Assembly (NCBI GenBank): GCA_964499705.1
Contig: CAZCME010000003.1
Location: forward strand, 124,001-188,000
Length of the DNA stretch: 64,000 nt
From: an uncultured bacterium
GTDB lineage: Bacteria > UBA8481
Direction: 5' to 3'
Below the pieces are notes generated by a model that did no database searches, was not told where the DNA came from, and saw only the letters and a program-made list of their open reading frames with translations. The stretch's first letter is position 1, and every line of letters begins with the position of its first letter. This document shows positions 42,963 through 62,820 of this stretch, one piece after another. Position numbers and translations under genes: made by a program.

Positions 42963-45900
42963 TCACTCGTAGAGCCAGACCCTGAGGAGCGAGAGGAGCT
43001 GATCAGGATCGACAGGTTTGGTGATGTAGTCGGACGCGCCCGCTTCGATGCAGCGTTCCCGGTCGCCTTTCATGGCTTTCGCCGTGAGCGCGATGATCGG
43101 AAGTCCCTCGAACTTCTTCACCTTCCGGATCCGCCGGATGGCTTCGAAGCCGTCCATCTCCGGCATCATGATGTCCATCAGCACAGCCTGGATGTCGGAT
43201 GTCTCCTTCAATCGCGCGATCCCCGCCTTGCCGGTCTCGGCGTAGACGACCTTCATCTTGTAGCGCTCCAGGAGGCTCGTCAGCGCGAAAATATTGCGGA
43301 CGTCGTCGTCGATGATGAGGATGCGCTTGTCCGTCAGGACCGGATCCGTCTCGTGAATCTGGCGGATGATCTTCCGCTGCGTCTCGGGCAGGTTCGCCTC
43401 CACGCGGTGGAGAAAGAGCGCCGTCTCGTCCAGCAGTCGCTCCGGGGATTTGACACCCTTGACGATGATCGTCTCCGCGGCCTTCTTCAGCCGGGTCTCT
43501 TCCTCCGGAGTGAGATCTTTGCCCGTATAGACGATGATCGGCAGCGCCGTATTCATCGGATCTTCCTTGATCTTCTCGATCAGCTCGAATCCATCCATGT
43601 CCGGCAGCTTCAGGTCGAGGACGACGCATTCGAAGGGCATCTGCTTCAGGGCTTCGAGCGCCTCTTTCGCCGTCGCGACCGCCGTGGAGACGACGTCGGA
43701 GTTTCCGATCAGGTCGACGATTCCCTTTCGCTGCACATCGTCGTCCTCGATGATGAGGAGGTTCTTCGTCCTTCGTCCCACGAACGCCGCGAGATCGTCC
43801 AGGGCCCTGGCGAGCTCGTTCCGGTTCGACGGCTTCTTCACGCAGCGCACCGCGCCCAGGCGCAACCCGCGCTGCGCGTCTTCCTCGACGGAGATGATGT
43901 GCACCGGTATGTGCCGCGTCATCGAGTCGTGCTTCAGGCGGTCGAGCACCGCCCAGCCGGAGATGCCGGGGAGCTGGAGGTCGAGCGTGATCGCGTCGGG
44001 ACGGAACTGCCGGACGAGGCCGAGCGTGGATTCGCCGTGCGTCGTGGCGACGCTCTTGAATCCCTTCTCATGCGCAAGATCCATCAGGATTCCCGCGAAC
44101 TTCGGATCGTCCTCCACGATGAGGAGCACCCGGTCTCCCTCCTTGATCCGGTCCCGGTCGTCCAGGATCTGCGGTTCCTCGTCCAGCATTTCCACGGACG
44201 TGGCCGTGACCCGGGGGGTCATGATGCGGACGGGATTTTCCCAGGCGGAAAGGGGCGCGGGGCGGGATGTCACCCGCTCCATGCGCTCCGCGGATGCCGC
44301 GACGAAGTTCTGGGGCAGGTAGAGCGTGAACCGGGAGCCTTCGCCCAGCATCGATTCGACGCGGATTTCACCGCCCAGCATGTGCGCGATTTCGCGCGAG
44401 ATCGCGAGTCCCAGGCCCGTTCCGCCGTATTTCCGGCTGATGCCGCCCTCGGCCTGCTGGAAGGCCTCGAAGATGATCTTCTGCTTTTCCTTCTGGATCC
44501 CGATGCCCGTGTCCGAAACCGTGAAGGAGATGACCTGGTCCGACTGGTTCAGGATCGGATGCTCCAGGCTCCATCCGCTCATCGCGCTCCCGATCTCCAC
44601 GGAGACTTTTCCCTTTTCCGTGAACTTGAAGGCGTTGGAGAGGAGGTTCTTCATGACCTGCTGGAGCCGTTTCGGGTCGGTGTAGATCGTCTCCGTCAGT
44701 TCCGGAGCCAGCGCGATTTCGAAGTCGAGCGATTTCTCGTCGGCCACCTGCCGGAACGTCCGGTCGAGGTGAGCTTCCAGGTCCAGGAAGCGCATGTCGG
44801 TCAGTTCCAGCGCCATCTTACCGGCCTCGATCTTGGAGAGGTCGAGAATTTCGTTGATGAGTCCCAGCAGATCCGCGCCCGACGCATGGATCGTCTGCGC
44901 CCACTCCGTCTGCTTCCCCGTGAGATTGCCTTCCGCGTTGTCCGCGAGCATTCTCGCGAGGATCAGCAGCGAGTTCAACGGCGTCCGCAACTCATGCGAC
45001 ATGTTCGCGAGAAATTCGGATTTGTATTTCGAAGTCAGGGCAAGCTGCTCGGCCTTTTCCTGCAGGGATTTCCGGGCGACTTCGACTTCGCGGTTCTTCG
45101 TCTCGACTTCCGCCTTCTGTTCGGCGAGGAGCTGGGCCTTTTCGCCGAGCTCCTGGTTCGTCTGCTGGAGCTCCTCCTGCTGCGACTGGAGCTGTTCGGC
45201 GAGCGCCTGCGATTGGCGGAGCAATTCTTCCGTGCGGATCGTGGCTTCGAGGGAGTTCAGGACGATGCCGAGCGTCTCGACGAGCTGTTCGAGGAAGGAG
45301 ATCTGCACCGGCGTGAAGGGATTGAAGGAGGCGAGCTCGACGACGGCTTTCACTTCCTGCTGAAACAGAATCGGCAGGACGATGATGTTATACGGGCTGC
45401 CGTCGCCCAGTCCGGAGCTGATCTGGATGTAATCGGCCGGAGCCTGCTTGACGAGAATTCTCTGCTTCTCCACGGCGCACTGGCCGACGATGCCTTCGCC
45501 GGCGCGGAACTCGTTCGCGAGACCTTTCCGTTCCTTGTAGGCGTAGCTGGCCAGGAGCTTCAAACGAGGCGCGGCTTCTTCCGGGTTGTTGATGTAGAAG
45601 ACGCCGTGCTGCGCCTCGACAACCGGAGCGAGCTCGGACAGGAGGAGGCGCGAGACGGTCTGCAGCTCCTTCTGCCCCTGCATCATCGCGGCGAACCGGG
45701 CGAGGTTCGTCTTCAGCCAGTCCTGTTCGCGGTTCTGGAGCGTGGTCTCGCGGAGATTGCGGATCATCGTGTTGATGTTTTCGCGGAGCGCGAGCACTTC
45801 TCCGGAGGCCTCGACGATGATTTCGCGAGTCAGGTCTCCTTGCGTCACGGCCGTTGCGACTTCGCCGATGGAGCGGACCTGGGTCGTCAGGTTCGCCGCG

Positions 45901-48900
45901 AGGAGGTTGACGTTGTCGGTGAGGTTCTTCCATGTGCCGGAGGCGCCGGGGACTCGGGCCTGTCCGCCGAGCTTGCCTTCTGTTCCGACTTCGCGCGCGA
46001 CGGTAGTGACCTGTTCGGCGAACGTCGAGAGCGTATCGATCATGTCGTTGATCGTGCCGACGAGCTCCGCGATCTCGCCGCGGACCTGGAGCACGAGCTT
46101 GCGGCGGAGGTCGCCCTTGGCGACGGCCGTCACGACGCCGGCGATGTTGCGGACCTGGTCCGTCAGGTTGGAGGCCATCGTGTTGACGTTGTCGGTCAGG
46201 TCCTTCCATGTGCCCGAGACGCCTTTGACGCGGGCCTGGCCTCCGAGCTTGCCGTCGGTGCCGACTTCGCGCGCGACGCGCGTGACTTCGTCGGCGAAGG
46301 AGGAGAGCTGATCGACCATCGTGTTGATCGTGTTCTTGAGTTCGAGGATTTCGCCTTTGACGTCGACCGTGATCTTCTTGGAGAGGTCGCCCTGCGCGAC
46401 GGCTGTCGTCACTTCGGCGATGTTACGGACCTGGCCGGTCAGGTTCGACGCCATGCGGTTGACGCTTTCCGTCAGGTCTTTCCACGTGCCGGCGACACCT
46501 TTGACGACGGCCTGGCCTCCGAGGATGCCTTCTGTTCCGACTTCGCGGGCGACGCGTGTCACTTCGTCGGCGAAGGAGGAGAGCTGGTCGACCATCGCGT
46601 TAATGGTGTTCTTCAATCCGAGGATTTCGCCTTTGACGTCGACGGTGATCTTCTTCGTGAGGTCGCCGGATGCGACGGCCGTCGTAACCTCGACGATGTT
46701 TCTCACCTGGTTCGTCAGGTTCGACGCCATTGTGTTGACGTTGTCCGTGAGGTCTTTCCACGTGCCGGCGACGCCCTTGACGACGGCCTGGCCTCCAAGC
46801 TTGCCTTCCGTTCCGACTTCGCGCGCGACGCGCGTGACTTCGTCGGCGAAGGAGGAGAGCTGGTCGACCATCGTGTTGATGGTGTTTTTCAGCTCGAGGA
46901 TTTCTCCGCGGACGTCGACGGTGATTTTTTTCGTCAGGTCCCCCTTGGCGACGGCCGTCGTCACTTCGGCGATGTTGCGGACCTGGTCCGTCAGGTTCGA
47001 CGCCATGCGGTTGACGTTCTCCGTCAGGTCCTTCCACGTGCCCGAGACGCCTTTCACGCGGGCTTGTCCTCCGAGCTTTCCTTCCGTTCCGACTTCGCGT
47101 GCGACGCGCGTGACTTCGTCGGCGAAGGAGGAGAGCTGGTCGACCATCGTGTTGATGGTGTTTTTCAGCTCGAGGATTTCTCCGCGGACGTCGACGGTGA
47201 TTTTTTTCGTCAGGTCCCCCTTGGCGACGGCCGTCGTCACTTCGGCGATGTTGCGGACCTGGTCCGTCAGGTTCGACGCCATGCGGTTGACGTTCTCCGT
47301 CAGGTCCTTCCACGTGCCCGAGACGCCTTTCACGCGGGCTTGTCCTCCGAGCTTTCCTTCCGTTCCGACTTCGCGTGCGACGCGCGTGACTTCGTCGGCG
47401 AAGGAGGAGAGCTGGTCGACCATGGTGTTGATGGTGTTTTTGAGCTCCAGGATTTCTCCGCGGACGTCGACGGTGATCTTCTTCGAGAGGTCGCCTTTGG
47501 CGACGGCCGTCGTCACGTCGGCGATGTTACGGACCTGGTTTGTGAGGTTGGACGCCATCGTGTTGACGTTGTCCGTCAGGTCCTTCCACGTTCCGGCGAC
47601 GCCCTTGACCGCGGCCTGTCCGCCGAGCTTTCCTTCGGTGCCGACTTCGCGCGCGACTCGAGTGACTTCGTCTGCGAAGGAGGAAAGTTGATCCACCATC
47701 GCGTTGATGGTGTTCTTTAATTCCAGGATCTCGCCTTTGACGTCGACGGTGATCTTCTTTCTCAGGTTGCCTTGCGCGACGGCCGTCGTCACCTCGGCGA
47801 TGTTGCGGACCTGGTTCGTCAGGTTGGACGCCATCGTGTTGACGTTGTCGGTGAGATCTTTCCACGTACCGGCGACGCCCTTGACGACGGCCTGGCCTCC
47901 CAGCTTGCCGTCCGTTCCGACTTCGCGGGCGACGCGGGTGACTTCGTCGGCGAAGGAGGAGAGCTGATCGACCATGGCGTTGATCGTCTTCTTCAGGCCC
48001 AGGATTTCGCCTTTGACGTCGACCGTGATCTTTTTGGTCAAGTCTCCCTGTGCGACCGCCGTCGTGACCTCCGCGATGTTGCGAACCTGGTTCGTGAGGT
48101 TGAACGCCATCGTATTGACGTTGTCGGTCAGGTCCTTCCACGTACCGGCAACGCCTTTGACGACGGCTTGTCCTCCCAGCTTGCCTTCCGTTCCCACCTC
48201 GCGGGCGACGCGCGTCACTTCCGACGCGAACGAGTTCAGCTGGTCGACCATGGCGTTGATCGTCACCTTCAGGTCGAGAATTTCTCCTCGGACGTCGACG
48301 GTGATCTTTTTCGAGAGGTCTCCGAGCGCGACGGCCGTCGTCACTTCGGCGATGTTACGGACCTGGTTCGTCAGGTTCGAGGCCATGGTATTGACGTTGT
48401 CCGTCAGGTTCTTCCATGTGCCCGAAACGCCTTTCACGCGCGCCTGACCGCCGAGTTTCCCCTCGGTACCCACCTCGCGCGCGACGCGCGTGACTTCATC
48501 GGCGAACGAGCCGAGCTGGTCCACCATGGCGTTGATGGTGTTCTTCAGCTTCAGGATCTCGCCCTTGACGTCGACGGTGATCTTCTTCGTGAGGTCGCCC
48601 TTGGCGACCGCCGTCGTGACCTCCGCGATGTTGCGGACCTGGTTCGTCAGATTCGACGCCATGATGTTGACGTTATCCGTCAGGTCCTTCCACGTGCCCG
48701 CGATACCCTTCACGCGGGCCTGTCCCCCCAATTTCCCTTCCGTTCCGACCTCGCGCGCCACGCGCGTCACTTCCGACGCGAACGAGTTCAGCTGGTCGAC
48801 CATCGTGTTGAATGTGTTCTTCAGCTTCAGGATTTCGCCCTTGGCGTCGATCGTGATCTTCTTTGAGAGGTCACCGTTGGCGACGGCCGTCGTGACCTCC

Positions 48901-49523
48901 GCGATGTTACGGACCTGGTTCGTCAGGTTCGACGCCATCCGGTTGACGTTCTCCGTGAGGCTCTTCCATGTTCCGGCCGCGCCTGGCACCTGGGCCTGGC
49001 CGCCGAGCTTGCCTTCCGTGCCGACTTCGCGCGCGACGCGCGTGACCTCGGACGAGAACGACCTGAGCTGGTTCACCATGCCGTTGACGACGTGACCGAT
49101 CTGCCGGTAAGCGCCGCGGACGGGACGGCCTTCGATCTTCAGGGCCATCGTCTGGGAGAGGTCTCCCTTGGCGACGGCGGAGATGACGCGCGCGACTTCC
49201 TGCGTCGGCCGGACAAGGCTTTCGATGAGGGAGTTGAGGGATTTAATGCGTTCCGCCCACGATCCGGACGCGCCGGAGAGGGACGCGCGTTCCGTCAATT
49301 TGCCTTCGCGGCCGACCACGATGCTGATCCGGGCCAGCTCATCGGTTGTGGCTTCCGAGAGGTTGGCGATGTCGTTCACCGCTTTCGCTATTTCCGCGCT
49401 GATGCCTTTACTGGTTTTGGCCATGGGGAGGCGCACGCTGAAGTCGCCCTTCCTGATGGCCTGAAGGGCGACAAGAATCTTGCCCGCCTCCACGCTCGGT
49501 ATCGCTGTCACTTCCGGTGTCAT
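42963..49523 (-). CDS. Cytoplasmic poly-HAMP hybrid histidine kinase (about 13 x 92-aa repeats, GAF, HisKA, HATPase, 3 REC)
   Basis: Twelve clear VAREVGT[ED]G[KI]LGGQA repeats plus one degenerate; [21 protein letters not shown]; three REC domains; GGGAGGT before ATG 49523. Confidence 0.95.
46825..47423. repeat. Exact 276-bp tandem duplication inside the poly-HAMP gene
   Basis: Sequence identical at offset 276 from 46825 to 47423. Confidence 0.88.
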
Positions 49524-49563
49524 TAAATCCACCTCCCTTTTTTGGGTGATTGTTTTTGCCGCG

Positions 49564-50220
49564 TCATCGCGAAGCGGCCTTTCTTCCTGCCGATTTCGCC
49601 GATACGGCGATGGGTATGCACTGGTTGATGATCTCCAGCAGGACATCCTTGCGGATGGGCTTGGCGAGAACATCTTCCGCGCCCGCCAGAATGAGCGCGT
49701 CGATCTCCGATTTGCGGGCCGCTCCCGTCATGCCGACAATATGCGTCCCCTTCGTCTCGGGCTCGGATTTCAACGCCCGGCAGACCTCGATGCCGTTCAC
49801 GCCCGGCAGCTTGATGTCGAGAAGCACCAAGGCCGGCCGTCGCTGATGCACAAGGCGGCCCGCGTCGAAGCCGTTCATGGCCGTCAGGATTTCGAGATCG
49901 GGCCGAAGCCCCTGGATGCGGACGACGAGAGATTCGAGATAGTCCTCGTCGTCGTCCACAACAAGAAGGACCTGCTCGTTGTTGGCCGGGGAAAGCGGGA
50001 TGCCCTCGCGCTCCGCGAACGCGACCAGATCATGCTCCAGCATGCGGCGATGTCCCCCGAAGGTGCGGTGGGCCGGGATGGCGCCCGAGTCGATCCAGCG
50101 CTGGATGGAGGAGAGGCTGACGCGGAGGAACCGGGCGGCTTCCACGGGCCCAAGGAGCTTGTTTTCGTCCGAGGAGTCCGCAACGGCCTGCGGCTCGGTC
50201 TTGCGCGTCTTGCGGGTCAC
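49564..50220 (-). CDS. Response regulator with N-terminal excisionase/BldC-like (HTH_17) domain
   Basis: [38 protein letters not shown], then REC (VVDDD, LLDIKLP, KP). Confidence 0.9.
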
Positions 50221-53870: not shown

Positions 53871-54580
53871 CGGATATCCGTCGTCAAGCCGCTGGCCGCG
53901 TTTCCTCTTGCCGCGACGAGGCGTCCGTTCCGAAGATACAGCACGGGTTGCCCGGAGGCATCGACGCGCTTGACGTCGTGCGTCGCGACGACGACCGTCG
54001 TCCCCTCCCTGTTAGCCGCCGCCAGGAGCGCGAAGATCTCCTCGGTGAGTTCCGGGTCGAGGTTGCCGGTCGGCTCGTCCGCCACGAGGAGTTCCGGCTC
54101 GATGACGAGCGCGCGGGCCATCGCGACGCGCTGCTTTTCCCCTCCCGAGAGCGAGACCGCGATCTTGTGCGCGTGATCCGTCATCTTCACCCGCGCCAGG
54201 GCCTCGCCCGCGCGGCGAAGCGCCTCGCTACGCGAAACGCCCGCGATCTCCAGGGCCAGCGCGACATTATCCCGCGCGGACTTGCGGAGAATGAGGTTGA
54301 AGTCCTGGTGCACGATCCCGATGTTGCGCCGCAGCATCGCGAGGCCGTGATGGTCGAGCCCGGAGATATTCTTTCCGCAGACGGTCGCTTCTCCGTCGTC
54401 CGCATGGCACTCTCCGTACAAGAGCCGCACCAGCGTCGATTTTCCCGCGCCGCTCGGCCCGGTCAGGAAGACAAACGCCCTCTCCTGGATGGCGAAGGTG
54501 ATGCCCGCCAGCGCCGGCCCTTCATCCTCGTCTCCCTCGAATGTCTTGGAGACACCCTGGAATCGAACGATCGTTTTCAT
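53867..54580 (-). CDS. ftsE: Cell division ATP-binding protein FtsE
   Basis: GPSGAGKST, LRRNIGIVHQDF, LSGGEKQRV, ADEPTGNLDP; adjacent to ftsX. Confidence 0.92.
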   Translation of the reverse strand: MKTIVRFQGVSKTFEGDEDEGPALAGITFAIQERAFVFLTGPSGAGKSTLVRLLYGECHADDGEATVCGKNISGLDHHGLAMLRRNIGIVHQDFNLILRKSARDNVALALEIAGVSRSEALRRAGEALARVKMTDHAHKIAVSLSGGEKQRVAMARALVIEPELLVADEPTGNLDPELTEEIFALLAAANREGTTVVVATHDVKRVDASGQPVLYLRNGRLVAARGNAASGLTTDIR

Positions 54581-55365
54581 CCGTCCAAGGTAGAGGACGA
54601 TGCCGGAAATTGCAAGATGGCGGCGGCGACCGCGTCGCTTCCTCCGCGCTTGAATTTCCGGATCAGGCCGGTCCCGATGAGTACGGCGTCGTAACCGGCC
54701 GGCACTTCCGCTGCTTTCTCATATCCGGATTCGGCGACACGGATCACGCCTTCGGGAATCATGGCATGCAGCTCCTGTGAAAGCCCGGTGTCCGTCCGAT
54801 AATCCCCCGCGGCCAGGTTCCGATTGTTGATGCCGATGATGCCGGCCTCGCGCGGTATCTTGAGGAGATCCTCCCGCGCATGCGCCTCATACAGCACATC
54901 GAGCCCCAGGGCTTCCGCGTGCGCCCCAAGTTCCGCCAGTTCCTCCGCCGGGAGGAACGTCGCGATGAGAAGGATGGCGTCCGCGCCCAGGATGCAGGCC
55001 TCGTCGATCTGTTCCTTCGAGAGCGTGAAATCCTTCCGGAGGATCGGGAGATCCGTCTTCTTCGCCAGGCGCTCGAGTTCGCCCGCGCTCATCCTGAAAT
55101 GGGAATCCGTCAAGATCGAGAGCGCATCGACTCCGGCCGAAATATAGGCCGCGAGCAGCGCATCGATGTCGACGCCGAGATCGCCGGTCGATGGCGAGGA
55201 CCGCTTGATCTCCGCGATGACCGAAAGCCCCGGCTTCGCCAGCGCCGCGCGGAAGGATCGGCGCTCGCGGATTCGCGGACGCCCGGACCACGTCCTGTCC
55301 GCTCGAAGCTCCGCGATCTCCTCTCGCTTCCTCGCGAGAATCTCCTCGATGGAAACGGGCTTCAT
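54577..55365 (-). CDS. trpC: Indole-3-glycerol phosphate synthase
   Basis: IAEIKRSSPS, LSILTD, PILRKDF, GADAILLI, IGINNRNL, VAESG. Confidence 0.93.
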   Translation of the reverse strand: MKPVSIEEILARKREEIAELRADRTWSGRPRIRERRSFRAALAKPGLSVIAEIKRSSPSTGDLGVDIDALLAAYISAGVDALSILTDSHFRMSAGELERLAKKTDLPILRKDFTLSKEQIDEACILGADAILLIATFLPAEELAELGAHAEALGLDVLYEAHAREDLLKIPREAGIIGINNRNLAAGDYRTDTGLSQELHAMIPEGVIRVAESGYEKAAEVPAGYDAVLIGTGLIRKFKRGGSDAVAAAILQFPASSSTLDG

Positions 55366-56720
55366 GCCGCGTCGAGCCGGTGCGAGATGGATCGGATGTC
55401 GCTCATCAGGACGGAGGTATATCTCCAGAGCGTGACGAACGCCAGCGCGATGAGACCGTACGCCAGCGCGGCGGCGATGTCCTCTTCGTGGCGCTGAGCG
55501 GTCGCGTCGAGAAAATCCAGGTAGCTTTCCAGGAAGAGCCCGAACCCGAGGATCGCCCACGTCACCTTCATCGTGCCGCACCCGTAATTCACGACGAGCG
55601 GCGGAAGCGACGCGAGGATGACGAGATCGAGAACGAGGATCGCCTGCCCGACGGTCTCCGCGCCCGGAATCACGGTCATGCCCTCTACAGGTTGGACAAT
55701 GGCGACGATGATGAAGACGATCGACGCGAAGGCGATGGCGGTTATGAACATCACCATCGTCTGCGCGATCTCGAATCCCCATCGCATGTACTGGCGCAGG
55801 ATGAAGAGGCACGACAGGACGAGCGACGTTCGTGAAAAGAGCCGGATTCCCTGCAGGGTGGTCGCTTCCAGTTGTTCCCTGTACAGGTGAGCCATCGCCG
55901 TCGGGACGAGCGCGAGGAACAGGAGCACCAGGAATGTCCGAATGTTCCTGGCTTCGAAGTGGAAAATGAGGATGAGAAGAAAAGCGCACGAGAGGAGGAT
56001 CGAAGCCGGGATGAGAAAGCGATGGAAGATGAGGAAGTTTTTCGGGGAGAGAAGGAGCGGAGGCAATACGGCCGCGGGAAGAAGAAGGAGGATGCCGTTC
56101 CGGACAAGAGATCCGATTTCCCGGTAGGAGAACTCGTTCTCGGGATCTCGTTTCGCCGCGAGCCCGGCGTGGAGAAACAGCGGGCCGGCCGCCGTGCCGA
56201 GCGCTTCCAATCCCATCGGCTCATGGCTGAGCCGGCGCGCGAACGTGAGGAGGAACATGAGGAGCGCGGCGGCGAGCGTGCCGTTGAAGATGGTGTGCAT
56301 CTTCAGGATGGTGGATTCGTCGCGGGCGTTGCCTTTCATGAGCGAGATGGAGACCGGCAGGATGAGCCAGAGCAGGACCGCGATGAACGGTCCGGCTCCG
56401 GGGATGAGCGCGAGAAGGCTCAGGCCGTAGAAGGCGCGATGCCATTTTCCCTGGAGAATGTAGTGCACGACGGAGAGGCCGAATGTGGCGGCCAGGGCGT
56501 TGGCGAGCGCGGAGAGGGACAGCAGCATGTCGAGCTCGGGGATCGGGAGCAGGGGCGAGGCGGTCCAGTGCAGGAGGAGCAGGAGGATCGACGCGGCCGC
56601 GGCCGCGACCTGCGCCAGCAGCACGGAGCGGATGCGTCGGGATTCGGGCGCGACGGAGATGCGAACGCCGACGAAGAAGAGGAGAGCGAGGGAACAGACC
56701 GTCACTATGGCGAGACTCAC
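55362..56720 (-). CDS. Hypothetical polytopic membrane protein
   Basis: About 12-14 hydrophobic segments; overlaps both neighbours by 4 nt. Confidence 0.65.
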   Translation of the reverse strand: MSLAIVTVCSLALLFFVGVRISVAPESRRIRSVLLAQVAAAAASILLLLLHWTASPLLPIPELDMLLSLSALANALAATFGLSVVHYILQGKWHRAFYGLSLLALIPGAGPFIAVLLWLILPVSISLMKGNARDESTILKMHTIFNGTLAAALLMFLLTFARRLSHEPMGLEALGTAAGPLFLHAGLAAKRDPENEFSYREIGSLVRNGILLLLPAAVLPPLLLSPKNFLIFHRFLIPASILLSCAFLLILIFHFEARNIRTFLVLLFLALVPTAMAHLYREQLEATTLQGIRLFSRTSLVLSCLFILRQYMRWGFEIAQTMVMFITAIAFASIVFIIVAIVQPVEGMTVIPGAETVGQAILVLDLVILASLPPLVVNYGCGTMKVTWAILGFGLFLESYLDFLDATAQRHEEDIAAALAYGLIALAFVTLWRYTSVLMSDIRSISHRLDAA

Positions 56721-58264
56721 GGCCTGGACAGAGCCTCCTCGCAGGCCGCGACGAGCCCTTCGAGCGACGAGGCCCGCGCGGTGACCGGCTCGAATCCATG
56801 CTCCACGATGGCCGCGGACGTGATCGGTCCGATCGAGACGAGAGGCACGCCGTCGAGCAGGGCGCGCTCACCGGCGGAGCTCATGAAATTCTTCACCGCC
56901 GCCGCGGATCCGAAGAGGATCGCGTCCACATCGTGCTTATCGAGGCAGCCGCGCAGCTCGCTCATGTCCGCGGGTATGGCTTCGTAGACCGGGACGACAT
57001 TCACGGCGTCGCCGAGATGCTTCACGATCACATCGCGCGCATCCTTCGCGCGCGGAAAGAGGAACCTGCGGTTCGCCGGATCGCCGAGCGCCGCGCACAG
57101 GCCTTCGCCGGTCGCGTGCCCGGGCACGATGTCGACACGGAGCCCCATCGCGGAACGGATCTTCTCCGCGGTCGAGGAGCCGATGGCGGAGATCTTCAGG
57201 CCCGCGAATGCCCGGCCGTCGAGTTCCAGCGCTTCGAGCCGGTCGGCGACGATGCCGACGGCGTTCTGCGACGTGAAGATGATGTCGGTATACCGGTTCA
57301 ACGCGCGAAGCTCGCGGTCGAGGTCATCCGCCGGAAGTCTCTTCAGCGCGACTCCCGGGGCTTCCAGCACGGCTGCTCCGCGATCGCGCAGCATGCGGGC
57401 GAGCCTGGAATCGTCGTTACGCGCGCGGGTCACGACGACTCTCTTGCCGAAGAGCGGGCGCGATTCGAACCAGTTGATCCGCTGCCGCACCTGGACGACT
57501 TCGCCGATGATGAAGACGGCCGGTGAACTGATTCCGGACGAAGCGGCCTTTTCCGCCATGTGAGCGAGGGTCGACACGACGGACCGCTGGTTCGATCTTG
57601 TGCCCCACTGGATGACGGCAGCCGGCGTTTCCGGATCGCGGCCCAGCCGGATCAGCTCGGCGCTGATCTCCTCGATCTTCGACGCGCTCATCATGAAGAC
57701 GAGCGTCCCCTTCAGTTGTGCCAGCGCGGCGAACTCGGGGCCGCGCGTCAGGATGTCCGCGCCGTGGGACGGATCGCGCATGCCTGTGATGAACGTGACC
57801 GAATCGGCCATGCCTCGATGCGTCACGGGAATTCCGGCGTACGCGGGAACGGCGATGGCGGAGGAAATGCCGGGGATCACATCGAACGGGAGGCCCGCGG
57901 CGGCGAGAGCCAGCGCTTCTTCGCCGCCCCGGCCGAAGACGAACGGATCTCCGCCCTTCAATCTCACGATGACGCTCGATGTCGTGGAACCTTCGGTCAC
58001 GAGGAGCCTGTTGATCGCGTCCTGCGACGTCGCGGCGGCGTGTCGAGTGGTCACGGTCCGGGCCGGCGGATCGGATTGGAAGGCCGAGCCTTCACGACCG
58101 CGCTTGCCCACGTAGATTTTCCGGGCCTCCGCGCGCACGAGGGCCATGATCTCGTCGCTGACGAGCGCGTCGTACACGACGACGTCGGCCTGCCTGATCA
58201 GTTCCAGGGCCCGTACGGTGAGAAGGCCCGGATCGCCCGGCCCGGCTCCGACGAGATGGATCAA
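56717..58264 (-). CDS. cobA: Uroporphyrinogen-III C-methyltransferase/synthase fusion (CobA-HemD)
   Basis: LVGAGPGDPGLLT, RLKGGDPFVFGRGGEE; PLFGKRVVVTR, IFTSQNAV, SIGPIT. Confidence 0.93.
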   Translation of the reverse strand: MIHLVGAGPGDPGLLTVRALELIRQADVVVYDALVSDEIMALVRAEARKIYVGKRGREGSAFQSDPPARTVTTRHAAATSQDAINRLLVTEGSTTSSVIVRLKGGDPFVFGRGGEEALALAAAGLPFDVIPGISSAIAVPAYAGIPVTHRGMADSVTFITGMRDPSHGADILTRGPEFAALAQLKGTLVFMMSASKIEEISAELIRLGRDPETPAAVIQWGTRSNQRSVVSTLAHMAEKAASSGISSPAVFIIGEVVQVRQRINWFESRPLFGKRVVVTRARNDDSRLARMLRDRGAAVLEAPGVALKRLPADDLDRELRALNRYTDIIFTSQNAVGIVADRLEALELDGRAFAGLKISAIGSSTAEKIRSAMGLRVDIVPGHATGEGLCAALGDPANRRFLFPRAKDARDVIVKHLGDAVNVVPVYEAIPADMSELRGCLDKHDVDAILFGSAAAVKNFMSSAGERALLDGVPLVSIGPITSAAIVEHGFEPVTARASSLEGLVAACEEALSRP

Positions 58265-59130
58265 CGAAGCTCCGCTACCGCGCGTTCGACTGCTTCATCG
58301 AGATCGGGGGAGAGCACATCGCAGCGCCGGAATCGTCCTCCGATATCCGCCGCCGCGACGATCCGCCACCCGGGCAGCACGATCGCTCCCAGCGCGAGAT
58401 GACATCCTCCGCCCATCGCCGCGAGAATTTTCCTTTCCGCGTCCGCAGCCCGCCGGCTGGGTTCATGATCCAGCACGCGAACTTTCTCCGCGACGTCTTT
58501 TCGCGCGACCTGGATCGCGAGCGCTCCCTGCGCCGGCGCGGAAGGAAAAATCTCGAACGCCAGGGATTCTCTCTCGCGATCGATGCCCATGCGACGGAGA
58601 CCCGCGGCGGCGCAGATCAGCCCGTCGGCGAGCCCCTCGTCGATTTTCCGGAGGCGGGTATCCACGTTGCCGCGGATCGGCACGATCTCGATATCGGGCC
58701 GGCATGCTCTCAGAAAAGCCATGCGCCGCGGGCTCGATGTCGCCACGCGCGCTTTGTCAGGAAGCGAGGATAACGTCGAGCCGGCTCGCCGCGCCGACGG
58801 GACGAAGACATCGCGCGGATCCTCGCGCTCCGGCACCGCGGCCAGCATGAGCTCGATCGCGCCGCTCGCGCGATTTTCCACGGGCAGATCCTTCATCGAA
58901 TGCACCGCGATGTCGGCGACGCCGTCGAAGAGAGCTTTCTCCACTTCGCGCGTGAAGACGCCCGGCGTCGACATCCGCGCGAGCGACGTGTTCTGATCGC
59001 GGTCGCCCTCCGTGGAAACGATGTGCAGCTCGGCCTCGATACCGGCCTTTTCCAGGAGCATCCTGGCGACCCATTCGGACTGGACTCGCGCGAGCCGGGA
59101 ACCTCGCGTGGCGATCTTCAAGGGAGTCAT
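58261..59130 (-). CDS. hemC: Hydroxymethylbilane synthase
   Basis: IATRGSRLA, DIAVHSMKDLP, TSSPRR, IRGNVDTRL, GGGC. Confidence 0.95.
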   Translation of the reverse strand: MTPLKIATRGSRLARVQSEWVARMLLEKAGIEAELHIVSTEGDRDQNTSLARMSTPGVFTREVEKALFDGVADIAVHSMKDLPVENRASGAIELMLAAVPEREDPRDVFVPSARRAGSTLSSLPDKARVATSSPRRMAFLRACRPDIEIVPIRGNVDTRLRKIDEGLADGLICAAAGLRRMGIDRERESLAFEIFPSAPAQGALAIQVARKDVAEKVRVLDHEPSRRAADAERKILAAMGGGCHLALGAIVLPGWRIVAAADIGGRFRRCDVLSPDLDEAVERAVAELR

Positions 59131-59133
59131 CGG

Positions 59134-59961
59134 CTACCTGTTCTTTCCGCGGCTCGCGGAAGCAACCTTCCACGCGACGCAATCTTCCAGAAAGTCCCTG
59201 ATCATCCTGAGCTCGTTCACGGGCAAGGGGGAGATCGATTCCTTCATCCTGTCCGCCAGAAATCGCAGACTCGATTCATCATTATACTTCGACGCGATTC
59301 CGCGCTGCAATTCTTCGAGCGTCCTTCCGGATTCGACGCCGGGATCTCCGCCTAGGACCGTTTCCACGCGCTTCCTGATCCGTTCCGCTTCCAGGCCGAC
59401 GAGGGTCTCCAGGGCCGCGGGGTACGAGCGCTTCATCTCCTCGCGCATCATCCTTTCGAGATCTCCCGCGGAGAACCGGTAGTGCGCCTGCGCGCAGGTG
59501 CCGCTCAGCTCGAACGCGATCTCGCAGGATCGTTCCGTATCTGCGGGCTCGCCGATGACGGCGATGTCCGAACGGAGATCGGTGGCATCGAGACATCCCG
59601 CTTCGAGAAAATGCCGCGTCATGCCGTGGGAACCGCCGACGATCCTGCCGCGCAATTCGCCGAAGATTTTCCGTGCGACGCGCAGTGCTTCGCGGGGCCA
59701 CCCGAGATCCCGGGGAAGTCCCTGGTCCTTCCTGATTCGCCTCGCGGAGCGAATCGCTTCCCGCAACGCCACCGCCCCGGCGTAGTCCTTCGGAATCAGT
59801 TCGGCGGCGAGCGCCGCCGCGTCCGCTTCCGCCGACGGCGCGTCGAAATAACCGGTGACGCCGATGCCGAGAAATCGCTTCAGGAGGCTTTCGGCGTCGA
59901 TCGCCGGGACATCCTTGCGGGATGCCGTCGGTCCGGCCCGTCGAGGTTGCTCCGTGATCAT
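59134..59961 (-). CDS. Degenerate glutamyl-tRNA reductase-like protein
   Basis: AIRSARRIRKDQGL...ALRVARKIFGELRGR and FSAGDLERMMREEMKR resemble HemA segments; canonical hemA position; no STCNR or GAGE motif. Confidence 0.6.
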   Translation of the reverse strand: MITEQPRRAGPTASRKDVPAIDAESLLKRFLGIGVTGYFDAPSAEADAAALAAELIPKDYAGAVALREAIRSARRIRKDQGLPRDLGWPREALRVARKIFGELRGRIVGGSHGMTRHFLEAGCLDATDLRSDIAVIGEPADTERSCEIAFELSGTCAQAHYRFSAGDLERMMREEMKRSYPAALETLVGLEAERIRKRVETVLGGDPGVESGRTLEELQRGIASKYNDESSLRFLADRMKESISPLPVNELRMIRDFLEDCVAWKVASASRGKNR

Positions 59962-59968
59962 GCGCGCC

Positions 59969-60807
59969 TCAGCTCCGCGCGAAGGTATGGAATGTCTCTC
60001 CGAGAATGAAGAAGGAATGGATCGCCATGACGAGGATGCCGAGGAGAAACGACATGATGACGACGCGGTGCCGCGTCCAGCCCCAGCGCGCGCCCAGGAT
60101 GAGGATGACACCGGCATACAGGCAGAGCGCCACGAGGACGCGGATGTTCGTATCCGCGAGGAGCTTGGCGGGGGGCACGGCGCCGCGAAGAAACAGCATC
60201 GCGAAAAGGAGGCCGGTGAGGATGCAATAGAGCCCGCTCTTGACGCCGACGCGCATGATCTCCGCGGACCGATCGAGCGGCGGAAGATGATCGAAGAGAG
60301 CGCCCATCCGCTTCAGGCGCAATTCGCGGTCCTGCAGCAGGAACAGGCCGGCTCCAAGCGCGGCGGCGAAGAAGGAGGAGTACCCCGCGTAACCGAGAAC
60401 GGCGTGCGCGAGGATGCCGAGTCCCTCGATCATGCTCTCGGCTTTCAACTCGTGCGCTCGCGTCGGCGCGCCCGCCACGACGAGGGAGGCCAGGAGCGCC
60501 AGCGGCGAGACGATGAGCCCGAGCAGAAACACGCGCATGCGGACGATGAACGCGACGCCGATGACGACCCATCCGAGCGAGAGACCGGCCAGAGCGCTGC
60601 GCGCGTCGGAGAAGGGCATCTCGCCGCGCGCCGCCCCCGCCAGCAGATCGCCCAGCTCGGCCAGGGCTCCGATGAAGAGCAGGAGCACGCCGGTGCGCGA
60701 GGCGTCTTCCGCCAGCTTCCGGGTCGCGGCGTCTTCGTGGATGAGATTGCGTTCGTAGATGATGAAGCAGAGGAGCGCCAGTGCGTAGAGCGGGATGGGG
60801 AGAAAGC

Positions 60808-60811
<4 letters not shown>
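59969..60811 (-). CDS. CcsA/HemX-like cytochrome c assembly family membrane protein
   Basis: LAHAVLGYAGY, LFLLQDRELRLK, LPPLD, C-terminal FHTF; 8 TM segments. Confidence 0.8.
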
Positions 60812-61821
<1,010 letters not shown>

Positions 61822-61955
61822 GGGAGCATCATATGGGGTCATGCCACATTCCCGCAACAATGCCGAGACCGGCGATGCCGGTGATCGCGCCTCGATTCGA
61901 GGCGTTGCGGCACATCATGTGTGCTTCTTCTCGCGGAAGAATCCTGTTTTCAAAG

Positions 61956-61971
61956 AGGCACGCTCCATGCA
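61956..61971 (+). promoter_or_regulatory. Sigma-54 -24/-12 promoter
   Basis: AGGCACGCTCCATGCA, GG-N10-GC, 55 nt upstream of ATG 62026. Confidence 0.55.
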
Positions 61972-62025
61972 CTCACCTACCTGCAGTGTTATAATGGAAA
62001 CGAAAAGCAAATTGAGGAGGGGTCC

Positions 62026-62820
62026 ATGAGTCCAGGTCAGAAGATCGCCACCGCGGTCGTGGTGGGTATCGTTGTCGTGTTGACGGGTGCGTATGCGCTT
62101 ATTGCCATGGAGCGAAGCAATGGCTCGTTGGAAAGCGAGTCCGCGACGGACACGCAGGCGGTGACTCCATCGGAAACGATCGCGTCGGCGATGCCATTGC
62201 ATATCGAGGCGACCAGTCCGGATATGACGACCGTGACGCCACGTTCATCCTCGGCGCGCCGCGCATCCGTTACGACAACATCGAACGCGAATGTCAAGAC
62301 CGATGCCGTGATGAAGGCGGCACCCATGATTGCCGCGGGAACAACCGTGGACGTGAAGATTCAGACGCACGTTTCTTCGCGCAATGCCAAGGTCGGCGAT
62401 CGGGTCGAGGCTGTCACGATCAACAACGTCATGATGAACGACAGGATTGTGATACCCGCGGGAACGGCGGTCGTGGGAGAAGTGACGGAAGTCAGGCCCG
62501 CAGCGGAGACGAAATCGGCGGCCGTCCTGAAGATCGCCTTCTTCAAGATCGGCGATCATTCGACACGCCTGGCGGTGGTGACCCCGGACCTGGCCGCGCG
62601 GGCCCGGACGGCCAATCGCGCCGTGGACGCGGGACTTGTCATCGGTGGAGCGGCCACGGGCGCGGTGATCGGCAACCAGACCGATGCGAAGCATGGCACG
62701 GAGATCGGCGCGGTCGTCGGCGGTGTCGCCGGCGGAATCGCCGCGGCCAATATCGGAGCCAACGTCCAGTTGAAGCTCGGCGAGACGGCGACGCTGAAGT
62801 TCACCAATGATGTGATGTGA
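62026..62820 (+). CDS. Membrane-anchored TrbI/VirB10-like protein with glycine zipper
   Basis: GAGGAGG RBS; TM; AGTTVDVKIQTHVSS..KVGDRV..VIPAGTAVVGEVTEV; GGAATGAVIG..GAVVGGVAG. Confidence 0.7.
   Translation: MSPGQKIATAVVVGIVVVLTGAYALIAMERSNGSLESESATDTQAVTPSETIASAMPLHIEATSPDMTTVTPRSSSARRASVTTTSNANVKTDAVMKAAPMIAAGTTVDVKIQTHVSSRNAKVGDRVEAVTINNVMMNDRIVIPAGTAVVGEVTEVRPAAETKSAAVLKIAFFKIGDHSTRLAVVTPDLAARARTANRAVDAGLVIGGAATGAVIGNQTDAKHGTEIGAVVGGVAGGIAAANIGANVQLKLGETATLKFTNDVM

Follow-up and report, generated by a model that had tools for sequence, protein, structure and literature searches.

Glutamyl-tRNA reductase (GluTR, HemA) is the control point of tetrapyrrole synthesis; the enzyme needs the cysteine of an N-terminal STCNR motif and a GxGxxG loop, and its gene commonly stands in the order ccsA-hemA-hemC-cobA/hemD. 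That the membrane protein HemX lowers GluTR abundance has been known for decades. The closest described system is the HemX-GtrR pair of Bacillus subtilis and Staphylococcus aureus, for which the literature gives an eight-helix HemX with its N-terminus outside and adjacency of hemX and gtrR in 106 of 113 genomes (PMC5801465). According to this 2018 report, HemX of S. aureus lowers GtrR abundance post-transcriptionally by a mechanism that is left undefined, and neither a HemX partner nor the GluTR residues involved are known there (PMC5801465). In plants, aminolevulinate synthesis is tuned by the non-enzymatic GluTR-binding proteins GBP and FLU (PDB 4n7r, 5che; PMC9614494). Here we describe an open reading frame (ORF) that occupies the hemA position in a 64,000-nucleotide stretch of DNA (the window; contig CAZCME010000003.1) from an uncultured bacterium of a little-known groundwater phylum, and that encodes a protein which we call pseudo-GluTR.

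59134..59961, minus strand: pseudo-GluTR ORF (275 amino acids, P0001), with an intact frame, a coding-type GC content at third codon positions (GC3), and a match to GluTR both by hhalign and by the fold of its AlphaFold2 model

On balance, we think it probable that this protein is derived from GluTR, has lost catalysis, has been kept by selection in the ancestral hemA slot, is co-transcribed with its neighbours and acts together with the HemX-like protein encoded next to it. Like GluTR (TIGR01035; PDB 1gpj, 4n7r, 5che, 5yjl), it has a predicted architecture running from the helical part of domain I through the nucleotide-binding-type domain and the long helix to the C-terminal helices, carries the motifs ...A.KIFG.L.G+ and Y.(Y/F)...DL and is encoded after a hemX-like gene and before hemC; unlike GluTR, it lacks the N-terminal beta-alpha subdomain and measures 275 rather than about 400-430 amino acids. 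The locus resembles the HemX-GtrR pair of PMC5801465 in placing a PF01578-type eight-helix protein beside a protein of GluTR fold in a uroporphyrinogen operon, but differs from it in that the neighbour of hemX is here a dead relative of GluTR, the active GluTR lies elsewhere and the contact is a predicted one. The pseudo-GluTR also resembles GBP and FLU, which as non-enzymatic proteins act on aminolevulinate synthesis; those two proteins, however, are unrelated to GluTR in fold and bind GluTR itself, whereas the pseudo-GluTR is GluTR-derived and predicted to bind a membrane protein. Full-text literature searches (pseudoenzyme; truncated or catalytic-cysteine paralogue) turned up no paper on a GluTR paralogue that has lost catalysis.

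Homology to glutamyl-tRNA reductase

Scans of the ORF protein against Pfam and NCBIfam found no significant family and no GluTR domain (best E-values 0.023 and 0.15), and in the NCBIfam scan TIGR01035 did not match at E <= 1. When the ORF protein and all 12 members of its family were scanned, the best matches were HTH_58 (E 0.023) and MinC_C (E 0.12), and none of the 12 matched GlutR_N, Shikimate_DH or GlutR_dimer. Profile searches of PDB sequences with the family alignments A2 and A3, carried to E 10, returned no GluTR and weak unrelated matches to uS2, AdcR, nucleobindin and urocanate hydratase. In BLASTP against the HemA encoded elsewhere in the same genome there was one match of 39 residues in the NADPH-loop region (17 identities, E 5e-4), which pairs ALRVARKIFGELRGR--IVGGSHGMTR with AARLTGKIFGSLKGRKLILVGAGEMGR, the helix and the glycine loop with which the NADPH domain begins.

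We then compared profiles, using the 12-row family alignment A3 (identities 22-62%, including the copy of genome G004) and an alignment of 10 GluTRs from genomes of relatives; the 10 come from 13 loci above the TIGR01035 cut-off, of which L012, L015 and L017 failed the motif filter, with no ORF of at least 300 amino acids carrying both motifs, and were left out. As a local alignment, hhalign gave a probability of 91.4, an E-value of 9.2e-7 and a score of 55.0 over 59 columns, against 18.7 for the reversed alignment and at most 19.3 for 30 column shuffles. At a looser threshold the alignment was colinear over 193 columns (protein residues 47-240 against GluTR columns 133-399) and paired DIAV with DIVI and AHYRFSAGDLERM with VYLYDIDDLESM, and the global alignment, beginning at GluTR column 81, covered 258 columns with a probability of 95.2 and an E-value of 7.8e-9. 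Identity to GluTR amounted to 14-21%. An earlier sequence-only reading of the window had quoted segments of this protein, and we found all of them present in the order given: AIRSARRIRKDQGL at residues 69-82, ALRVARKIFGELRGR at 92-106, IVGGSHGM at 107-114, SDIAVIG at 131-137, FSAGDLERMMREEMKR at 163-178 and LEAERI at 190-195. The likeness to HemA goes beyond chance, as seen from the distance of the hhalign score from its controls and from the BLASTP match.

A template-free AlphaFold2 model computed from A3 reached a predicted local distance difference test score (pLDDT) of 85.8 and a predicted template modelling score of 0.75, with disorder confined to residues 1-19 and a lower pLDDT of 76-85 in the C-terminal part. 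In a Foldseek search of the PDB, ranks 1-7 were all GluTR chains, with 1gpj at E 2.8e-5 and the Arabidopsis chains 5che, 5yjl and 4n7r at E 1.8e-3 to 8.5e-2, and other Rossmann enzymes began at E 0.11. VIA-align superposed residues 17-251 of the model on residues 55-393 of 1gpj (Z-score 8.8, 230 residues aligned, root-mean-square deviation (rmsd) 11.4) and gave Z-scores of 7.6-8.7 for the Arabidopsis GluTR chains, the next family being FolD/MTHFD with a Z-score of at most 6.0 over model residues ~81-189 only. The high rmsd we attribute to the hinged, elongated, multi-domain build of the protein. A search of 48,161 chains that was independent of Foldseek placed 1gpj at rank 1 and 4n7r_A at rank 3; these two were the only matches longer than 90 residues among the top 50, the rest being helical matches of 50-90 residues, mostly to the C-terminal 70 residues. 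The predicted model thus has the overall GluTR fold, comprising the helical subdomain, a domain of nucleotide-binding type, the spinal helix and the C-terminal helical domain, and the comparison with GluTR that the sequence-only reading had called for came out positive both for profiles and for structures. The ESM Atlas was searched as well; it gave no usable feature match, and its own model was poor (pLDDT 0.38; MreB-like folds at a template modelling score of 0.32) and was disregarded.

Taken together, profile, fold and synteny make it very probable that the pseudo-GluTR descends from GluTR. Because searches of sequences against profiles miss GluTR, the homology rests on profile-profile comparison of small alignments (number of effective sequences 3.6) and on a predicted model. 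One may instead suppose that an unrelated Rossmann-like gene was inserted between hemX and hemC and that its likeness to GluTR is convergent or fortuitous; the failure of every comparison of a hidden Markov model with a sequence to link the protein to GluTR, the low identity and VIA Z-scores below 9 would suit this. We nevertheless consider it very unlikely, since the hhalign score stands far above the shuffled and reversed controls, the alignments are colinear over ~190-258 columns that include parts outside the Rossmann domain, GluTR chains fill the first seven Foldseek ranks while other Rossmann enzymes follow from E 0.11 over model residues ~81-189 only, and the gene sits exactly where relatives have hemA. 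As to the parent enzyme, hhalign against single sequences scored 39.5, 36.0 and 35.8 for the HemAs that occur in the same genomes as the family and 24.4-34.2 for the others, a gap too small to decide which GluTR gave rise to it. What is left of the Rossmann domain, and the neighbours of siroheme type, also led us to consider a precorrin-2 dehydrogenase of the SirC/CysG-N type; as neither the Pfam scans nor the fold matches listed contained this family, the idea was dropped, although absence there is no proof.

Loss of the catalytic parts

Relative to GluTR, about 80 N-terminal residues are gone and with them the (S/T)CNR cysteine motif: the global hhalign alignment starts after the TCNR motif, the VIA alignment starts at residue 55 of 1gpj, and the catalytic domain GlutR_N (PF05201) is not recognised. 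A 12-residue stretch holding the GExQILGQ motif is deleted. The GxGxxG loop is replaced by IVGGSHGM in this protein and by GxGP-like sequences in other members, so that the family does not conserve it as GxGxxG; aligned with LILVGAGEMG of the genome's own HemA, IVGGSHGM is short by two residues on one side and by four on the other. The Rossmann domain is reduced by about 70 residues, the model keeping four strands (residues 107-109, 133-136, 148-151 and 161-164), and an NADPH-binding Rossmann domain of the PF01488 type with GxGxxG is lacking, in line with the missing Shikimate_DH match. Over its whole length the protein fails to reach the TIGR01035 cut-off of 209.55 bits. GlutR_dimer (PF00745) does not match it, nor does it match the genome's own true HemA at E <= 0.001. 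Of domain I the model retains the helical part and of domain II a remnant of four strands; the long helix and the helical C-terminal domain are kept as well.

Since the pseudo-GluTR fails the defining features of GluTR, it should not be annotated as hemA. This removes an annotation trap, a gene in the hemA position that is not hemA, from a phylum represented by five species genomes. Judging from its sequence, the protein is probably non-catalytic. The missing N-terminal catalytic segment and IVGGSHGM in place of LxIGAGEM, both pointed out by the sequence-only reading, are borne out by the hhalign and BLASTP alignments.

A rare family under purifying selection

Relatives of the pseudo-GluTR are few. 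A word-indexed search of 5.8 billion proteins returned the ORF protein itself and one relative (P0003, 61% identity), and phmmer over 1.84 billion cluster representatives returned 10 proteins at E <= 0.001, with identities of 27-62% and lengths of 92-305 amino acids; all 10 are singleton clusters, none has the length of GluTR, and the sole name attached to any of them in any source is 'hypothetical protein'. Seven members of the family come from metagenomes. Searches for related loci in genome contigs (queries P0001 and P0010) and metagenome contigs (queries A1 and P0010) gave none. The phylum comprises the species genomes G000 (the genome analysed here) and G001 to G004, and three of these five carry the family, namely G000, G003 of the same taxonomic family and G004 of the same order; we did not find it in G001 (86% complete), in G002 (88% complete) or in 36 sampled genomes of other lineages. 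We consider it likely, on balance, that the pseudo-GluTR represents a new and very rare pseudoenzyme family within the GluTR superfamily, to which it would add such a family.

Alignment A3 contains two conserved blocks, LPxDLG(Y/W)xREAxRxAxKIF and AFExGG...AxYRFxxxDLxRxxRxExKRxYP, and over its 12 rows hardly any variation occurs at P83, G87, E91, F100, G122, Y161, F163 and P181; conserved cysteines and histidines are absent. In the window, these blocks and the remnant of the glycine loop lie at the following positions.

59644..59718, minus strand: residues 82-106, motif LPxDLG(Y/W)xREAxRxAxKIFxxLxGR, equivalent in GluTR to the helix that precedes Rossmann strand 1 (AVELAxKIFGxL)
59620..59643, minus strand: residues 107-114, IVGGSHGM, degenerate and shortened remnant of the GxGxxG NADPH loop
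59419..59523, minus strand: residues 147-181, motif AFExGG...AxYRFxxxDLxRxxRxExKRxYP, equivalent in GluTR to the final Rossmann strands and the beginning of the spinal helix (vYLYDIDDL)

The first block is the stretch that aligns best with GluTR, the second is colinear with GluTR in hhalign, and they form the first and second halves, respectively, of the interface predicted with the HemX-like protein (see below).

The ORF looks like an intact coding gene. Its translation, 275 residues without stops, confirms the intact frame noted in the sequence-only reading, and a GAGG stands 6 nucleotides ahead of its ATG. Its GC content by codon position (0.645/0.496/0.761) is similar to that of hemC (0.714/0.503/0.759). 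A longer start at the ATG at 60117 was rejected: the extension 59962-60117, with GC values of 0.46/0.83/0.58 at the three codon positions, lacks a coding pattern in the frame of the ORF, and the longer frame would overlap the upstream HemX-like gene.

Relatives found by phmmer at 27-62% identity keep an open frame, the full copies having ~240-305 amino acids. Closer variation came from metagenomes: nine public groundwater or aquifer runs from four studies contain this DNA, one of which may be its source and none of which is an RNA run, and contigs from four runs were compared with the ORF region. In run X7 we found a relative 88-93% identical across the whole ORF (about 89% at the nucleotide level) with an in-frame deletion of 3 nucleotides at 59802, and in contigs of runs X4 and X7 the start codon at 59961 is GTG instead of ATG. 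The substitutions in X7 were counted over the 36 differences listed within the ORF, which come from assembled contigs of one run and from 40 of 267 tabulated rows. Thirty codons are affected, 20 of the changes being synonymous and 10, among them that of the start codon, non-synonymous, and codon positions one, two and three are hit 8, 5 and 23 times. As far as this partial list from assembled contigs goes, the gene is under purifying selection, and by its sequence the pseudo-GluTR is a pseudoenzyme in the accepted sense, combining homology to an enzyme, loss of catalytic residues and purifying selection.

The sequence-only reading had left two possibilities, a pseudo-enzyme or a decaying gene, and proposed examining substitutions among relatives. 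The X7 counts speak for the first, as do the GluTR homology and the catalytic losses. A functionless hemA remnant in decay would be compatible with the large deletions relative to GluTR and with a functional hemA elsewhere in the genome, but it sits badly with an intact frame of similar length in relatives, a confidently predicted fold and coding-type GC3, and also with an 8/5/23 bias towards third positions, twice as many synonymous as non-synonymous codons and an indel that preserves the frame; we regard it as extremely improbable.

The working hemA lies at another locus

The genome (4.67 Mb in 45 contigs, 96% complete) contains one true hemA, on contig C10 (L001, G000:C10:87411-91436, 1498-2697 of the plus strand). 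Its product carries the ATCNR and GAGEMG motifs and scores 266.1 bits with TIGR01035 (cut-off 209.55), 110.6-113.5 bits with GlutR_N and 109.1 bits with Shikimate_DH. The rest of the C5 route is present on contigs other than that of the window as well, with hemL (564.5 bits, cut-off 527.3) and hemB (460.4 bits). The genome search proposed in the sequence-only reading therefore found a second hemA, hemL and hemB, and its suggestion that aminolevulinate comes from another hemA was correct. The true HemA has no GlutR_dimer match at E <= 0.001 and is covered by TIGR01035 over positions 2-352 of 416; coverage of the HemAs of G003 and G004 is likewise partial (1-367 and 2-331), and by this measure the C-terminal domain seems to have diverged in the relocated HemAs of the lineage.

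Gene order within the phylum suggests what the position held before. In G001, a member of the same taxonomic family, a ccsA-like gene is followed by hemA and hemC; in G002, a second ccsA-like gene and then hemA come after a true ccsA (WGxxWxWD-type motif, by eye); and in G000, G003 and G004 a member of the pseudo-GluTR family takes the place after the ccsA-like gene. The designation of the position as a hemA slot, made in the sequence-only reading, is supported by the order in G001 and by the hemX-gtrR adjacency in 106 of 113 genomes given in PMC5801465; measured against that survey, it is unusual for hemX to lack a true hemA beside it. The true hemA genes of G000, G003 and G004 (L001, L014 and L016) all lie between a gene for an Aminotran_5 (class-V) aminotransferase and a CBM48/AMPK-CBM plus metallo-beta-lactamase-type gene, a conserved setting assigned by Pfam in G000 and by eye in the other two. 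The three HemAs group in one clade (support 98/96) to which the operon-type HemAs of G001 and G002 do not belong, in a 10-row tree with long branches, composition warnings and a root placed for drawing only. Pseudo-GluTR and relocated HemA occur together in three of three genomes, and neither was seen in the other two; among such close kin this probably reflects one evolutionary event and does not count as independent support.

Two further features of these relatives were noted. The tandem PF01578 paralogues of G002 (L013, G002:C2) comprise a ccsA-type gene at 3-668 (WGTYWSWD, by eye) and a HemX-type gene at 665-1498 of the plus strand. The hemA operon of G001 (L010, G001:C121) is strikingly AT-rich, as judged by eye from translations rich in Lys, Ile and Asn, and the HemA of G001 groups in the tree with HemAs of other phyla, which may reflect a transfer or a problem of binning or classification.

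The HemX-like neighbour and the predicted complex

Directly upstream of the pseudo-GluTR gene lies the gene of a membrane protein.

59969..60817, minus strand: HemX-like membrane protein (282 amino acids, CcsA/Cytochrom_C_asm superfamily), PF01578 26.4 bits, no WWD motif seen

The PF01578 score of this copy is below the 29.9 cut-off; its orthologues in the phylum all match PF01578 at E <= 0.01 (five of five, best 1.6e-21), and the genome holds four other PF01578 genes with strong matches. Adjacency of the HemX-like gene and the pseudo-GluTR gene is conserved in G003 and G004, and the orthologues in G001 and G002 stand directly before the true hemA. By position and type, the upstream gene can be taken as the HemX of the operon.

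We modelled the complex of the HemX-like protein and the pseudo-GluTR from our own alignments (A5 with 5 rows and A3 with 12 rows). The interaction prediction score from aligned errors (ipSAE) was 0.62 for the pair and 0.00 for the best of three controls; the mark used for this score is passed by 58 of 80 solved complexes and by 2 of 110 mismatched pairs, figures that are rough here, own alignments having been used. Contacts agreed to at least 96% among the three runs, with the pLDDT of the partner at 79 or above. On the HemX-like protein the interface lies in residues 162-183, the conserved loop QDRELRLKRMGALFDHLPPLDRS (QDRxLRxxRxGxLFDxLPPLxRS), which the published topology and our own reading of the hydrophobic stretches would make the largest loop on the cytoplasmic side. 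The pseudo-GluTR contributes residues 91, 94-95, 97-102, 161, 163, 167, 170-171 and 174, which include E91, F100, Y161 and F163 (each 11/11), D167 (10/11) and K98 (8 K and 2 R). These residues coincide with the two stretches that the family still has in common with the GluTRs of relatives, KIFG and Y.Y/F...DL. We know of no solved HemX-GluTR complex. Given this, and the statement in PMC5801465 that no HemX partner was known, it seems unlikely that the model reproduces a known structure. The modelling supports a putative binding of the pseudo-GluTR to the HemX-like protein.

From these predictions the following mechanism may be proposed. The ancestral hemA slot would now encode a dead GluTR, the working GluTR of the lineage being made from another locus. 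The HemX-like protein would offer its main cytoplasmic loop as a docking site, and the pseudo-GluTR would bind there by the surface that it still has in common with GluTR, that is, the ...A.KIF... helix and the start of the Y.F...D strand and helix, and the docked protein would serve as a mimic of GluTR, either decoy or adaptor, in HemX-dependent control of tetrapyrrole synthesis and of the flux into uroporphyrinogen. Selection, if the complex model is right, kept a HemX-docking surface on a GluTR-shaped scaffold. In this obscure lineage we infer a regulatory role together with HemX from the binding that the model supports. A more specific version, which we put forward tentatively, is that the mimic keeps mainly the HemX-recognition surface of GluTR and acts as a competitive decoy or adaptor that might set how much of the relocated GluTR escapes HemX-dependent down-regulation. 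A stripped-down GluTR beside hemX, whose invariant residues are those of the predicted HemX contact and of the GluTR-wide motifs, offers a concrete hypothesis for the contact between HemX and GluTR, and the mimic, if real, would reveal the long-sought HemX docking site on GluTR.

Several points weigh against this picture. The complex result is a model confidence obtained from shallow alignments of our own (5 and 12 rows), and the complex modelling covers one pair, the HemX-like protein and the pseudo-GluTR, whereas the idea of a decoy goes beyond that pair. Pfam, NCBIfam and hmmsearch of the PDB to E 10 all miss GluTR, and the VIA Z-score of 8.8 is in the middling range by the tool's own scale, with a high rmsd of 11 A. 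The synonymous and non-synonymous counts come from 36 listed differences in the assembled contigs of one run. Moreover, the family is missing from two of the five phylum genomes (86% and 88% complete), so that its role would be lineage-specific.

Dead paralogues that regulate their active counterparts are a common pattern among pseudoenzymes. The pseudo-GluTR could accordingly act mainly on the true GluTR, forming a heterodimer through the long helix and the C-terminal domain that would be dominant-negative or stabilising, with or without HemX. Both the spinal helix and the helices of the C-terminal domain do take part in the fold match, which ends at residue 251 of the model and residue 393 of the chain, and the true HemA, having no GlutR_dimer match at E <= 0.001, has an unusual C-terminus. 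However, conservation peaks at residues of the predicted HemX interface, while the columns of the C-terminal helices are poorly conserved and their pLDDT is lower (76-85). We judge such a heterodimer unlikely as the main function; it is compatible with the reading of the protein as a selected pseudo-GluTR acting with HemX.

Still less likely, in our estimate, is that the protein remains an enzyme, or a binder of small molecules, whose novel activity belongs to the tetrapyrrole branch; the remnant of the Rossmann cleft might, for example, sense or handle a nucleotide, haem or an intermediate derived from uroporphyrinogen. Cys-170 of the Salmonella enzyme is presumably located in the helix equivalent to residues 88-100 of the pseudo-GluTR. 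Salmonella GtrR binds haem through this cysteine (PMC5801465, PMC8913508). The predicted co-transcription with hemC and cobA/hemD would also suit a ligand-binding role, as would the conserved polar and aromatic residues D85, R90, E91, Y161, D167 and R173. On the other hand, the family conserves no Cys or His, and has no cysteine at the presumed equivalent of Cys-170; the Rossmann remnant has four strands and is without GxGxxG; most invariant residues lie in the predicted protein-protein interface; and neither the Pfam scans nor Foldseek gave a match to a SirC/CysG-type or any other enzyme family.

The gene cluster and its surroundings

In the reading of the protein as a pseudo-GluTR that acts with HemX, its gene is part of an operon. 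The remaining genes of the tight cluster are these.

60808..61860, minus strand: mtnA, methylthioribose-1-phosphate isomerase (NF004326, 431.4 bits), first gene of the cluster
58261..59130, minus strand: hemC, hydroxymethylbilane synthase (TIGR00212, 257.7 bits, cut-off 164)
56717..58264, minus strand: cobA/hemD fusion, uroporphyrinogen-III C-methyltransferase and uroporphyrinogen-III synthase (TP_methylase 175.1, HEM4 150.6, NF004790 285.5 bits)
55362..56720, minus strand: polytopic membrane protein of 452 amino acids and no known family (no Pfam family; best NCBIfam E-value 0.62)

Family matches thus agree with the neighbours named in the sequence-only reading, a Cytochrom_C_asm-type gene upstream and hemC and cobA/hemD downstream. 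Along the minus strand, mtnA and the HemX-like gene overlap by 10 nucleotides, gaps of 7 and 3 nucleotides separate the pseudo-GluTR ORF from the HemX-like gene and from hemC, and overlaps of 4 nucleotides each join hemC to cobA/hemD and the latter to the gene of the 452-residue membrane protein. No terminator-like site was found on the minus strand within 54500-62500. From this arrangement, the pseudo-GluTR gene appears to be co-transcribed with the HemX-like gene and with hemC and cobA/hemD, and the gene of the 452-residue membrane protein, which may be the last of the cluster, probably belongs to the same operon.

The methionine salvage gene mtnA is also the upstream neighbour in G003 (L004, 3121-3726), an odd yet conserved partner for a tetrapyrrole operon. 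Divergent from the operon and upstream of it, the plus strand at 61921-62820 encodes a protein of 299 amino acids with a C-terminal glycine-zipper 2TM domain (Rick_17kDa_Anti, 25.9 bits). Elsewhere in the window, an ORF of 2236 amino acids at 42963-49673 on the minus strand, in which Pfam recognises 12 HAMP stretches (HAMP 387 bits, HAMP_2 363 bits), GAF, HisKA, HATPase_c and three receiver stretches, corresponds to an unusually long poly-HAMP hybrid histidine kinase.

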